From the NCBI RefSeq assembly GCF_003334355.1, contig NZ_QOWP01000068.1: DNA of 5,921 nucleotides; one strand, given 5' to 3'. Each line of letters begins with the position of its first letter. Position 1 is the first letter of the stretch. This DNA is from Escherichia coli (lineage in GTDB: Bacteria > Pseudomonadota > Gammaproteobacteria > Enterobacterales > Enterobacteriaceae). The notes beneath the pieces were generated by a model. It ran no database searches and was not told the DNA's origin. It saw nothing but the letters and a program-made list of their open reading frames with translations. Shown piece by piece: positions 181 through 5,921 of this stretch. The position numbers were made by a program, and so were the translations under genes.

Positions 181-315
181 CGATGTGACTATGATCGTAT
201 CCGGTGAGTACAGCTTTGATCCAAAGGCTGGTTTTCTGTGATGATTGACCAGCCTCAGAGTATTGATGACACCACCGTTCATAACAGATCGGCATTACTA
301 TGCATAAGTACTGTC

Positions 316-1368
316 TCATATTCTCGCCAAAACACTTTTTAATGCCTTTGCGAATTCATCCAGACTTATATTGTCAATTTTTTGCCCAACGACGACTGAC
401 TCCGAAACATCGGCCATTGCGGGCCATCGCGTTTTGTAATCAGCATAAATTGCAACAACGGGAGTATTATAGGCACTTGCCATATGTAATATTGAGGTGT
501 CAGGAGTTATTGCGATATAAGCATCTTTTATGATTGCTGCTGAACGTTTAATCGAGGGTGATAAGGATAAACGGTAGACATTATTATAACAATCCACTAA
601 TACCCTGGCTTTATCTTCCCCTTTTGGTCCATGAACGATCACTATTGGTATATCTGTTTCACTTTGAATTTTTGCTATTAGATTTTCTGCAATCGATAAT
701 GAAAATGTACGTTCCTGCGAGCTACCTTCTAAATTAAGCGCAATGTAAGATCCTAACGATCGCATTTCCTCGCGCACCTCATCGAGTACATCCTCACTTA
801 GTGGCAATTCATATATTGGCCTGACTGCTGGAAAACCCGCCTCACGCATCATAAATGCCCATGTCATGGGTACAGGAGCCCGGAGATTCTGATCCATCCG
901 GGACGCGTTCTTGCACAAAGGGGAGTAGCACTTCATGGTTAAACCAACAACCTGAAAATTCGTTTTTGCTTTTAACTGACTGATAAATATCATCGTTTTC
1001 AGGTTCTTTTTACGCATCGCCTCTATACAAAGATCCGGCGTACCGTATTGCTGTGTTATGTTCTTTGCTAAATCTTTTATTTCTTTTAATGTTGCGTGAT
1101 CCTGCATAGTCATTGTGACTAATGTTAATTTAGTCTTTTCAAGTTTAAGTGCATTAAACACTTCTAAATTAATTGTCGACGTAACAATTAAAAGATGCTT
1201 AATTTTATGCAATTCAAGCGCCCGAATAACAGGAAAGATGGCCATAGCATCGCCAATCTGGTCGGGAATATGGATAACAACAAACTCTGTTTTTTCAATA
1301 TTAAAATTATAAGCTTTATAATCGTAGTAACTAAATGCAATACGTCTCAACAATGATGCTAAAAACAT
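316..1368 (-). CDS. yeeL: Glycosyltransferase family 9 (ADP-heptose:LPS heptosyltransferase-like) protein; YeeL-like
   Basis: Single uninterrupted minus-strand frame ending in TGA at 318-316. The N-terminal region (VVIHIPDQIGDAMAIFPVIRAL) resembles the GT9 'GD' motif region, and the C-terminal region (ITPDTSILHMASAYNTPVVAIYADYKTRWP) resembles the conserved GT9 DSGpmHlAaA...P-x-valfG block. Start is uncertain: the ORF track opens at a TTG (1431); the first in-frame ATG is at 1368-1366, preceded by GGGAGG/GAGG, which gives 350 aa. Position next to shiA matches the yeeL locus. Confidence 0.75.
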   Translation of the reverse strand: MFLASLLRRIAFSYYDYKAYNFNIEKTEFVVIHIPDQIGDAMAIFPVIRALELHKIKHLLIVTSTINLEVFNALKLEKTKLTLVTMTMQDHATLKEIKDLAKNITQQYGTPDLCIEAMRKKNLKTMIFISQLKAKTNFQVVGLTMKCYSPLCKNASRMDQNLRAPVPMTWAFMMREAGFPAVRPIYELPLSEDVLDEVREEMRSLGSYIALNLEGSSQERTFSLSIAENLIAKIQSETDIPIVIVHGPKGEDKARVLVDCYNNVYRLSLSPSIKRSAAIIKDAYIAITPDTSILHMASAYNTPVVAIYADYKTRWPAMADVSESVVVGQKIDNISLDEFAKALKSVLARI

Positions 1369-1682
1369 ACCTAACCTCGCCTCCCTACTGGTTATAATGC
1401 ATTGCAGTCTATCAGACTCATCATGGCGCAATTTTGTGCATATGCGGACTTTTATGTTTCATATCTCGAACCTGTGGGTCCTCTGCTTAATCCTTAAACA
1501 ACACCAGCAACTCCTGCGCTTTCATCTTCCAGCGAATTTTTCATGTTGCCGTTAATCGGCCATAAAATCATTTGCAGATGCGCTCTGTCGAGGTAGTCTC
1601 ATAAGGTTCGTTTATAGATCGACGGCAATGTGAGTTACCTTTTCCATACTAATTATAAAAAGACAGTACAAACAGGATCATT

Positions 1683-2999
1683 ATGGACTCCACGCTCATC
1701 TCCACTCGTCCCGATGAAGGGACGCTTTCGTTAAGTCGCGCCCGACGAGCTGCGTTAGGCAGTTTCGCTGGTGCCGTCGTCGACTGGTATGATTTTTTAC
1801 TCTATGGCATTACCGCCGCACTGGTGTTTAATCGCGAGTTTTTCCCGCAAGTAAGCCCGGCGATGGGAACGCTCGCCGCATTTGCCACCTTTGGCGTCGG
1901 ATTCCTTTTCCGTCCGCTCGGCGGTGTCATTTTCGGTCACTTTGGCGACCGACTGGGACGTAAGCGCATGTTAATGCTGACCGTCTGGATGATGGGCATC
2001 GCGACAGCCTTGATTGGTATTCTTCCTTCCTTCTCGACCAGTGGGTGGTGGGCACCTATTTTACTGGTGACGCTGCGTGCCATTCAGGGATTTGCCGTCG
2101 GCGGCGAATGGGGAGGCGCGGCGTTGCTTTCCGTTGAAAGTGCACCGAAAAATAAAAAAGCCTTTTACAGTAGCGGTGTACAAGTTGGCTACGGTGTAGG
2201 TTTACTGCTTTCAACCGGACTGGTTTCATTGATCAGTATGATGACGACTGACGAACAGTTTTTAAGCTGGGGCTGGCGCATTCCTTTCCTGTTTAGCATC
2301 GTACTGGTACTGGGAGCATTGTGGGTGCGCAATGGCATGGAGGAGTCCGCGGAATTTGAACAACAGCAACATTATCAAGCTGCCGCGAAAAAACGCATCC
2401 CGGTTATCGAAGCGCTGTTACGACATCCCGGTGCTTTCCTGAAGATTATTGCGCTACGACTGTGCGAATTGCTGACGATGTACATCGTTACTGCCTTCGC
2501 ACTTAATTATTCAACCCAGAATATGGGGTTACCGCGCGAACTTTTCCTCAATATTGGTTTGCTGGTAGGTGGATTAAGCTGCCTGACAATTCCCTGTTTT
2601 GCCTGGCTTGCCGATCGTTTTGGTCGCCGCAGGGTTTATATCACAGGCGCGTTAATCGGAACGTTGAGCGCATTTCCTTTCTTTATGGCGCTTGAAGCAC
2701 AATCTATTTTCTGGATAGTTTTCTTCTCCATAATGCTGGCAAACATTGCGCATGACATGGTGGTGTGTGTGCAACAACCGATGTTTACCGAAATGTTTGG
2801 TGCCAGTTATCGCTATAGTGGCGCTGGAGTCGGTTATCAGGTTGCCAGTGTGGTTGGCGGTGGATTTACACCTTTTATTGCCGCTGCACTCATCACTTAC
2901 TTTGCCGGGAACTGGCATAGCGTCGCCATTTATTTGCTGGCTGGATGCCTGATTTCCGCAATGACCGCTTTGTTGATGAAAGACAGTCAACGCGCTTGA
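1683..2999 (+). CDS. shiA: Shikimate/dehydroshikimate transporter ShiA (major facilitator superfamily)
   Basis: 438-aa ORF with ATG at 1683 preceded by AGGA. MFS motif-A-like sequences GHFGDRLGRKRM and LADRFGRRRV are present, and the protein is hydrophobic throughout. The sequence is recognised as E. coli ShiA from memory. Confidence 0.93.
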   Translation: MDSTLISTRPDEGTLSLSRARRAALGSFAGAVVDWYDFLLYGITAALVFNREFFPQVSPAMGTLAAFATFGVGFLFRPLGGVIFGHFGDRLGRKRMLMLTVWMMGIATALIGILPSFSTSGWWAPILLVTLRAIQGFAVGGEWGGAALLSVESAPKNKKAFYSSGVQVGYGVGLLLSTGLVSLISMMTTDEQFLSWGWRIPFLFSIVLVLGALWVRNGMEESAEFEQQQHYQAAAKKRIPVIEALLRHPGAFLKIIALRLCELLTMYIVTAFALNYSTQNMGLPRELFLNIGLLVGGLSCLTIPCFAWLADRFGRRRVYITGALIGTLSAFPFFMALEAQSIFWIVFFSIMLANIAHDMVVCVQQPMFTEMFGASYRYSGAGVGYQVASVVGGGFTPFIAAALITYFAGNWHSVAIYLLAGCLISAMTALLMKDSQRA

Positions 3000-3005
3000 T
3001 AGCCT

Positions 3006-3045
3006 GGCGAAGATCATCCGATCTTCGCCTTACACTTTTGTTTCA
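3006..3045 (+). terminator. Candidate intrinsic terminator downstream of shiA
   Basis: Perfect 9-bp stem GGCGAAGAT (3006-3014) / ATCTTCGCC (3021-3029) with 6-nt loop CATCCG, followed by the T-rich tract TTACACTTTTGTTT. Begins 7 nt after the shiA stop. Confidence 0.45.
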
Positions 3046-3100
3046 CATTTCTGTGACATACTATCGGATGTGCGGTAATTGTATGGAACAGGAGACACAC

Positions 3101-4555: not shown

Positions 4556-4822
4556 TAAGTTCTGAACCTTCTCATCAGAAATAGATGTGAAGGATTAAGT
4601 AAGACATCTGGCAAATAGCCTGCAATCAACGCGGGCTGTTTGCTTCCTTGGGCAGATGCGAGTTTCATTATCGTCTTAATGATTTCCGCATATTAAAAGC
4701 ATGTATGCTTTCAAAATATAATTATAAAAAATCCCGCCAACAACATTAGTTTTTATAAAACAAAATATAAGATTATGGCTTTAGAATATTTTTATTTCTA
4801 ATAGACGAGATTTTTCCGGTTA

Positions 4823-4897: not shown

Positions 4898-5614
4898 GTG
4901 GGACGTAAATGGGCCAATATTGTTGCTAAAAAAACGGCTAAAGACGGTGCAACGTCTAAAATTTATGCAAAATTCGGTGTAGAAATCTATGCTGCTGCTA
5001 AACAAGGTGAACCCGATCCAGAATTAAACACATCTTTAAAATTCGTTATTGAACGTGCAAAGCAGGCACAAGTTCCAAAGCACGTTATTGATAAAGCAAT
5101 TGATAAAGCCAAAGGCGGCGGAGATGAAACGTTCGTGCAGGGCCGTTATGAAGGCTTTGGTCCTAATGGCTCAATGATTATCGCCGAGACATTGACTTCA
5201 AATGTTAACCGTACGATTGCTAACGTTCGCACAATTTTCAATAAAAAAGGCGGCAATATCGGAGCGGCAGGTTCTGTCAGCTATATGTTTGACAATACGG
5301 GTGTGATTGTATTTAAAGGATCAGACCCTGACCATATTTTTGAAATTTTACTTGAAGCTGAAGTTGATGTTCGTGATGTGACTGAAGAAGAAGGTAACAT
5401 TGTTATTTATACCGAACCTACTGACCTTCATAAAGGAATCGCGGCTCTAAAAGCAGCTGGAATCACTGAGTTCTCAACAACAGAATTAGAAATGATTGCG
5501 CAATCTGAAGTTGAGCTTTCCCCAGAAGATTTAGAAATCTTTGAAGGGCTTGTTGATGCCCTTGAAGATGACGACGATGTACAAAAAGTTTATCATAACG
5601 TCGCAAATCTCTAA
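4898..5614 (+). CDS. yeeN: YebC/PmpR-family protein (DUF28), YeeN
   Basis: 238-aa ORF with GTG start at 4898 preceded by GAGGAG (4882-4887). The N-terminus [27 protein letters not shown] parallels the YebC-family N-terminus (GHSKWANIKHKK...), and the tail is acidic (EDDDDVQKV). Recognised as E. coli YeeN from memory. Confidence 0.93.
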
Positions 5615-5623
5615 TTATATTTT

Positions 5624-5660
5624 AAAGAAATCTGTCTTTACGGCAGATTTCTTTAATCTC
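5624..5660 (+). terminator. Candidate intrinsic terminator downstream of yeeN (AT-rich hairpin, possibly bidirectional)
   Basis: Inverted repeat AAAGAAATCTG (5624-5634) / CAGATTTCTTT (5644-5654), 11 bp perfect with a short loop, followed by TTTAATCTC. The stem is AT-rich so strength is uncertain. Begins 10 nt after the yeeN stop. Confidence 0.45.
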
Positions 5661-5844
5661 ATATAACCCTTATAAAAAATATAATGTTCAACTCGTCATA
5701 TTGATTATAAAAAATCCCCGTTCCCAGAGAAATAATATTTATTAAAATTCCAGTTCTTCTTTTTCTGATTACAGAAGGCAAAGTGGCAATTACGCATAGT
5801 TTCCCGATAAAGACGCGATAGCGACATCCCGCATAAGGCATTTT

Positions 5845-5867
5845 GGTAATGACTCCAACTTATTGAT
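5845..5867. repeat. IS1 terminal inverted repeat (IRR), 23 bp
   Basis: ggtaatgactccaacttattgat; differs from the repeat at 158-180 at a few positions, as expected for IS1 IRL versus IRR. Confidence 0.85.
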
Positions 5868-5921
5868 AGTGTTTTATGTTCAGATAATGCCCGATGACTT
5901 TGTCATGCAGCTCCACCGATT
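5860..5921 (-). CDS. insB: IS1 InsB (transposase C-terminal part), 3' fragment truncated by the window edge
   Basis: Minus-strand reading gives ...SVELHDKVIGHYLNIKHYQ followed by stop TAA (complement of 5862-5860), matching the InsB/InsAB' C-terminus from memory. Confidence 0.75.
   Translation of the reverse strand, partial: SVELHDKVIGHYLNIKHYQ

Follow-up and report, generated by a model that had tools for sequence, protein, structure and literature searches.

The yeeL-shiA spacer of an Escherichia coli chromosomal segment holds a mapped promoter and the known RyhB-regulated leader of shiA

The window, by which we mean the whole stretch of DNA that was analysed (5,921 nucleotides of Escherichia coli contig NZ_QOWP01000068.1), is an E. 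coli-type chromosomal segment carrying the genes yeeL, shiA, amn and yeeN. The spacer considered here is bounded by the first two of these.

316-1368, minus strand: yeeL, encoding a family 9 glycosyltransferase; its start codon ATG is the complement of 1366-1368
1683-2999, plus strand: shiA, encoding the shikimate transporter; its start codon ATG is at 1683

The spacer (1369-1682) measures 314 bp and has the same length in the RefSeq annotations of K-12 and strain cq9. If the longer, TTG-initiated yeeL ORF ending at 1431 is taken, 251 bp are left, and the range of about 250-314 bp given in a preliminary description of this DNA is thus confirmed. The surroundings of the spacer are common in the species, as 5,338 of 5,426 complete E. 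coli genomes match a query of 1300-1750, mostly at 95-99% identity. In the window yeeL is an intact ORF of 350 codons. RefSeq strains have it annotated as a family 9 glycosyltransferase, while the K-12 copy is annotated as a pseudogene. Between 1559 and 1750 (-124 to beyond +60 relative to the shiA ATG) the window and K-12 are identical, and the eight differences found within the spacer all fall at 1402-1558, upstream of -124. Because of this identity, the start site and pairing results obtained in K-12 apply to the window.

Copies of IS1 in the same orientation lie at both ends of the window, with 1-180 corresponding to the last 180 nt of the element and 5843-5921 to its first 79 nt, as identified by alignment to the complete IS1 of strain PSS-12. 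They flank the 5,662-bp yeeL-shiA-amn-yeeN segment in a composite-transposon-like arrangement. E. coli PSS-12 carries an identical right junction, and the left junction occurs as one continuous match in no complete E. coli genome among the best matches listed. A contig labelled as a 'Candidatus Nanosynbacter sp.' MAG (JARKOR010000252.1, locus L003 in our set) encodes a ShiA 100% identical to that of the window, and at the DNA level it agrees with window 181-1750 to 99.9%. This contig is most likely E. coli DNA that was mis-binned into a Candidatus Nanosynbacter genome.

The transcription start of shiA has been mapped in K-12. The supplementary table of Kim et al. 2012 places it at 2051590 on the plus strand of NC_000913.2, with 194 reads and a 5'UTR of 77 nt; the 50 nt of upstream sequence given there match K-12 exactly, and the start corresponds to G1606 in the window. 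The shiA start reported by Capping-RACE accords with earlier data. The elements of the promoter and leader that are laid out around this position are the following.

1562-1576, plus strand: A-tract (1562-1568, UP-element-like) and -35 element TTTGCA (1571-1576)
1586-1602, plus strand: promoter block TGTCGaGGTAGTCTCAT, spanning -20 to -4 and containing the -10 element TAGTCT (1594-1599)
1606, plus strand: transcription start of shiA, a G, from Kim et al. 2012 and transferred via the identity with K-12
1606-1682, plus strand: 5' untranslated leader of shiA, 77 nt, a riboregulatory element
1606-1624, plus strand: 5'-terminal hairpin, with consensus register 1606-1611/1619-1624 and core pairs 1608-1610/1620-1622
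1607-1656, plus strand: RyhB pairing region (-76 to -27), with the seed-complementary core GGCAAUGUGAGU at 1624-1635 (-59 to -48)
1630-1648, plus strand: 5' arms of the self-inhibitory structure, GUGAGU (1630-1635) and the anti-AUG sequence UCCAUA (1643-1648)
1674-1699, plus strand: Shine-Dalgarno sequence AGGA (1674-1677), start codon AUG (1683-1685) and the 3' arms UAUGGA (1682-1687) and GCUCAU (1694-1699)

The -35 element matches the consensus at 4/6 positions and the -10 element at 3/6, with a spacing of 17 bp between them and the start 7 nt downstream of the -10. Judged by its sequence, this is a weak sigma-70-type promoter, and its poor match to consensus is the reason why it was missed both by a consensus scan and in the preliminary description. 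A start further upstream, with TAAAAT (1563-1568) serving as -10 and GGUAGUCUCAU pairing with the RyhB site as in a fold of 1590-1720, was also considered and was rejected in view of the start site data. The pairing of GGUAGUCUCAU with the RyhB site was rejected for a second reason, as changes in the partner are not compensated.

Comparison with other genomes separates the spacer into two parts. Among 80 orthologous shiA loci that were retrieved, homology to the Escherichia lineages L005-L008 and to Enterobacter starts abruptly at 1561-1562 (-45). The match to yeeL extends to 1416, and in L005, L007 and L008 the yeeL homologue is found inverted, about 1.5 kb away and 72% identical, which suggests a local rearrangement. 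The homology break together with the displaced yeeL homologue delimits 1561-1682 as the module belonging to shiA, the left 190 bp or so travelling with yeeL:

1369-1560, unstranded: part of the spacer linked to yeeL, holding TATAAT at 1393-1398 (plus strand), with no detectable role in shiA control

The table of Kim et al. 2012 lists no transcription start within 1369-1560. The description of the spacer as a divergent control region is accordingly misleading, with the homology of the Escherichia lineages beginning only at 1561 and the yeeL homologue standing elsewhere in another orientation.

Within the module, conservation over 79 distinct sequences is concentrated in four islands: AAAA..TTT.C at 1564-1575, CGnGGTAGTCTCA at 1589-1601, leader positions 1626-1653, and ACAGGA..AUGGA. 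In the first island, 70-90% or more of the sequences share AAAA (1564-1567), TTT (1571-1573) and C1575. For most of CGnGGTAGTCTCA (-17 to -5), identity is 90% or higher over a range of genera that takes in Escherichia, Rahnella and Klebsiella, and ACAGGA and AUGGA are conserved to at least 90% as well. The preliminary description had named the absence of conserved non-coding blocks as an outcome that would refute it; such blocks are present across the orthologous loci.

The leader is the site of a well described regulation. shiA was the first described target to be activated by the iron-starvation sRNA RyhB, whose pairing with the shiA 5'UTR undoes a structure that keeps translation from being initiated (Prevost et al. 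2007, as cited in later work). Activation by RyhB has been reported independently in several studies, is Hfq-dependent and was seen in vivo and in vitro, and RyhB also activates a reporter made of the 77 nt of the shiA 5'UTR and 46 codons. The experimentally defined pairing extends from -76 to -27 on shiA with a thermodynamic core at -59 to -48 (PMC3546686, citing Prevost 2007). In the window the core GGCAAUGUGAGU forms 12 contiguous pairs with RyhB nt 44-55 at -19.2 kcal/mol, calculated with the RyhB of K-12 (checked against the annotated K-12 gene), the strain of the window being other than K-12. In dinucleotide shuffles of the leader, 12 pairs were reached in 0 of 2000 cases and an energy of -19.2 kcal/mol in only 3 of 2000. 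GGCAAUGUGAGU is also the sole site with at least 11 contiguous RyhB seed pairs on either strand of the window. These figures come from seed-only scans, which were used instead of RNAduplex runs with full-length RyhB, as the latter gave meaningless arm-to-arm duplexes on long targets. By the published start and the identity with K-12, the 77-nt leader transcript is long enough to include the whole site.

The strongest RyhB duplex predicted in the window lies not in the leader but inside shiA, at 2303-2340 (codons ~207-220), where RyhB nt 34-75 would pair at -35.4 kcal/mol over a background of -14.1 +/- 5.0. Shuffles preserving protein and codon usage gave an equal site anywhere in the gene in 3 of 150 cases and at 2303-2340 in 1 of 300, and the energy at the homologous position ranges from -12 to -37 across orthologs. 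This duplex is probably due to chance.

Folding of the leader points to occlusion of the start codon. Two helices, 1643-1648/1682-1687 and 1630-1635/1694-1699, recur in each of the minimum free energy folds of 1606-1700, 1606-1720, 1606-1740 and 1606-1820, and the probability that the AUG is unpaired is 0.11-0.23 across the leader folds. When the RyhB pairing region (1607-1656) is masked, i.e. forced to be single-stranded, this probability rises from 0.23 to 0.80; 1670-1690 becomes 19 times more likely to be fully open, whereas a control mask has no such effect on either. For the Shine-Dalgarno sequence itself the prediction is a mostly open state (P about 0.6), and the folding energy of the leader is not below that of shuffles (z = -0.15 for 1590-1720). 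The model thus favours occlusion of the AUG over occlusion of the Shine-Dalgarno sequence or a strongly structured leader.

The different structural elements vary in different ways across genera. On an alignment that was not fitted to structure, RNAalifold calls a single helix, the 5'-terminal hairpin. All six of its pairs change on both sides (columns 6-20, for example, read CG in 23, UA in 13 and UG in 4 cases), and the sequences of its arms vary by genus. Of the cells for the two inhibitory helices (45 sequences), 75-78% preserve the pairing, and changes are one-sided except in a single cell, which is expected as one arm of each consists of start codon and coding sequence. A RyhB seed match near -59 with 9-17 contiguous pairs is found in Escherichia, most Enterobacter, Leclercia, most Lelliottia and Kosakonia, and also in Rouxiella silvae and 'Serratia' M24T3. 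It amounts to 8 pairs in Citrobacter and Pseudocitrobacter and is absent near -59 in Klebsiella, Raoultella, Rahnella and Tatumella. This distribution broadly agrees with an earlier report that counted the shiA interaction among the less conserved RyhB targets. An AT-rich leader element, AAUAAU/AAAAA, is conserved in nearly all genera, including Klebsiella and Rahnella that lack the RyhB site. Conservation without that site implies some function of its own, candidates being the binding of Hfq, of the ribosome or of Fur.

Taken together, the 122 bp at the right-hand side of the spacer (1561-1682) very probably constitute a complete, self-contained control module of shiA with a RyhB-activated leader, and the 190 bp or so to the left very probably belong with yeeL. 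From the present analysis this draws on the identity with K-12, the promoter geometry, the seed complementarity, the predicted occlusion and its relief, the conservation and the covariation; from the literature it draws on the start site, the RyhB- and Hfq-dependent activation and the extent of pairing. In such a module, the weak promoter would drive transcription from G1606 and provide the 77-nt leader. On its own, the leader would pair UCCAUA with the start codon and GUGAGU with codons 4-6, keeping translation low. Upon iron starvation the repression of ryhB by Fur would be lifted, and RyhB with Hfq would pair with 1607-1656, nucleating at the core. By occupying both upstream inhibitory arms, RyhB would free the AUG and the ribosome-binding region and raise both translation and mRNA stability. 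More ShiA would then import shikimate and feed enterobactin synthesis. Perhaps the 5'-terminal hairpin shields the 5' end of the mRNA or presents the adjoining RyhB site, and the A-rich tract may aid Hfq or ribosome binding.

The spacer is therefore ordinary and already explained, as it consists of a known RyhB-regulated leader and a mapped promoter. The preliminary description had reported no recognisable operator. This does not hold, given a clear published RyhB pairing site and a weak published predicted Fur site in the spacer. It had also called the regulation of shiA poorly characterised, which is fair for transcriptional control, little documented so far, but overlooks that translational activation by RyhB is a textbook case. 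The spacer reads as lacking control elements because its signal consists of RNA complementarity and a promoter with poor consensus rather than a protein operator. Scans for operators thus miss a classic example of sRNA activation. A comparison with the curated Rfam families likewise left 1369-1700 unmatched, with E values up to 1 allowed. Several comparative observations made here were not found in the accessible literature, namely the sharp module boundary at -45, the lineage-restricted RyhB site, the compensatory 5' hairpin, and the conservation of the AT-rich element and of the -10 block without RyhB pairing.

The module can be placed among known systems. RyhB is otherwise mainly a repressor. 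The rpoS leader, regulated by DsrA, RprA and ArcZ in an 'anti-antisense' mode, likewise folds onto its translation start and is opened by Hfq-dependent sRNAs that pair with the upstream arm. It is much longer (a reporter carried 564 nt of it), pairs near -100 and responds to three sRNAs, whereas the shiA leader has 77 nt and one known sRNA. Activation of glmS by GlmZ is similar in that an inhibitory hairpin is opened by an sRNA that pairs at -40 to -22, 5' of the ribosome-binding site. The glmS site differs by its position in the intercistronic region of the processed glmUS mRNA and by a GlmY/RapZ cascade in place of iron. The closest counterpart is the K-12 shiA 5'UTR itself (Prevost et al. 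2007, Mol Microbiol 64:1260, as cited in later work), which has the same start site, RyhB site, inhibitory pairing and gene. The control module is without differences between the two, and the window is set apart from K-12 by its intact yeeL, its IS1 flanks and the eight upstream substitutions.

Classical Fur-repressed promoters, such as those of the ent and fep genes, serve the same purpose as the shiA module, the induction of siderophore supply under iron starvation, and for shiA an AT-rich Fur-like sequence and an in vitro gel shift with Fur are on record. Fur could repress shiA directly as well, resulting in a double control by iron with Fur acting on transcription and RyhB on translation. 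The site proposed for this is the following.

1644-1658, unstranded: predicted Fur site CCATACTAATTATAA, at +39 to +53, overlapping TATAAA and the AAUAAU/AAAAA tract

This site was predicted together with a gel shift of a shiA promoter fragment by Fur (PMC8085971, 2021). It matches 10/14 positions of the 7-1-7 Fur motif, and a further match of 9/14 overlaps the -35 element, the A-tract/-35 region (1562-1576) being an alternative place where Fur might act. The AAUAAU-type element is, moreover, conserved in Klebsiella and Rahnella, where a RyhB site is lacking. Against this, the gel shift was done with Fur in 80-160-fold molar excess, and the position of the site comes from prediction, not from a footprint. 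Eight other places score as high or higher for the motif (the window has seven places at 10/14 and two others at 11/14), and no 19-mer Fur box within three mismatches was found. Two in vivo studies assign the induction to RyhB alone: one states for UPEC and K-12 that shiA 'was regulated only by RyhB', and the other puts the share of RyhB in the induction under iron limitation at 100%. In comparison to the ent and fep promoters, the Fur-like site of shiA is weak and lies downstream of the start instead of over the -35 and -10, and the in vivo data show no direct effect of Fur. Direct control of shiA by Fur, and with it the double iron control, appears possible but unlikely to us.

Another reading concerns the -10 block. 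CGnGGTAGTCTCA could be the operator of an additional transcription factor or an alternative-sigma -10, which would place shiA under a conserved transcriptional control independent of RyhB. The conservation extends to the non-consensus -10 bases G, T and C, and Klebsiella, Raoultella and Rahnella retain the block although they have no RyhB site. An RNA pairing with the RyhB site does not account for it, as changes of the partner in Citrobacter and Klebsiella are uncompensated. The amn promoter, however, is equally invariant over ~15 nt around its -10, and also across its -35, in the same 46 genomes. Furthermore, no dyad or direct-repeat symmetry is seen in CGnGGTAGTCTCA, and no regulator gene is a conserved neighbour of shiA; in Enterobacter, Klebsiella and Rahnella, the genes found beside it encode PagP, a c-di-GMP phosphodiesterase and a pseudouridine synthase, the other ORFs being without a family match. 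Informal comparison of the block with the consensus sequences of RpoE, RpoH, RpoS, FecI, TyrR, TrpR, LexA, IscR, NarL, FadR/GntR-type regulators, PurR and Cra gave no convincing match, and a literature search for the sequence of the promoter block returned only unrelated eukaryotic primers. We consider such an operator or sigma element rather improbable. By its invariance CGnGGTAGTCTCA seems older than the lineage-restricted RyhB site. That it binds a regulator, or is a sigma-specific element, that sets shikimate uptake, with the covarying 5' hairpin as a second functional element of the leader, is a reading to which we likewise give a low probability.

Control by TyrR through a weak box, TGTGAG-N6-TTTCCA at 1629-1646, is hardly credible. 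The box agrees with TGTAAA-N6-TTTACA at 9/12 positions, lies in a conserved stretch and keeps the G and the C that are essential in a TyrR box. Yet matches with three mismatches occur 7 times in the window where 4.4 are expected (28 of 200 shuffles reach 7), and at +24 to +41 the box coincides with the RyhB core and an inhibitory arm, which already explain its conservation. No report of shiA control by TyrR was found in the literature on shiA, TyrR and shikimate, covered mostly at listing level. The preliminary description was thus right in seeing no TyrR box, the best match in the spacer having three mismatches and occurring at chance frequency.

Its two candidate -10 hexamers are both present in the spacer, each one base lower than given (TATAAT at 1393-1398, TATAAA at 1654-1659), and a pattern scan of the spacer with no consensus sigma-70 pair bears out that neither has a good -35 partner. 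That the region is an uncharacterised divergent one with simple constitutive promoters built on these hexamers, a reading that could appeal to their existence and to the lack of a strong consensus promoter in the scan, is extremely improbable and for shiA already refuted by the start site data: neither hexamer serves the mapped start at G1606, TATAAA lying at +49 within the leader, downstream of a RyhB site that the regulated mRNA must contain, and TATAAT 213 bp upstream of the shiA start in non-conserved, yeeL-linked DNA with no recorded transcription start.

A start assigned to yeeL lies on the shiA side of the spacer.

1673, minus strand: weak antisense transcription start (Kim et al. 2012: 2051657 on the minus strand, 3 reads), assigned to yeeL with a 305-nt leader

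It precedes the shiA ATG by 10 nt and would give rise to an RNA antisense to the entire shiA leader. On the minus strand CATAAT (complement of 1680-1685) is suitably spaced to be its -10, as read from the sequence.

Three further hairpins of the window resemble terminators. One, CGTCCCGATGAAGGGACG followed by CTTTCGTT at 1707-1724 (plus strand), lies in shiA codons 9-14, 25 nt into the coding sequence. A terminator-like match occurs nowhere else in 1250-1800, where 0.3 would be expected, and the hairpin forms in all sufficiently long leader folds. The others were noticed as sub-threshold Rfam matches, Thr_leader at 23.6 bits (threshold 55) and OrzO-P at 25.3 bits (threshold 60), located at 4558-4645 and 5570-5654, where a hairpin and a U-tract stand just 3' of the stop codons of amn and yeeN. 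These matches most likely reflect intrinsic terminators and not the families named. Finally, the amn promoter (3035-3066, with the start at 3072 according to Kim et al. 2012) is near-invariant over ACTTTTGTTTCACA and GTGACATACTATCGG in 46 genomes, a degree of conservation that points to putative regulator sites.
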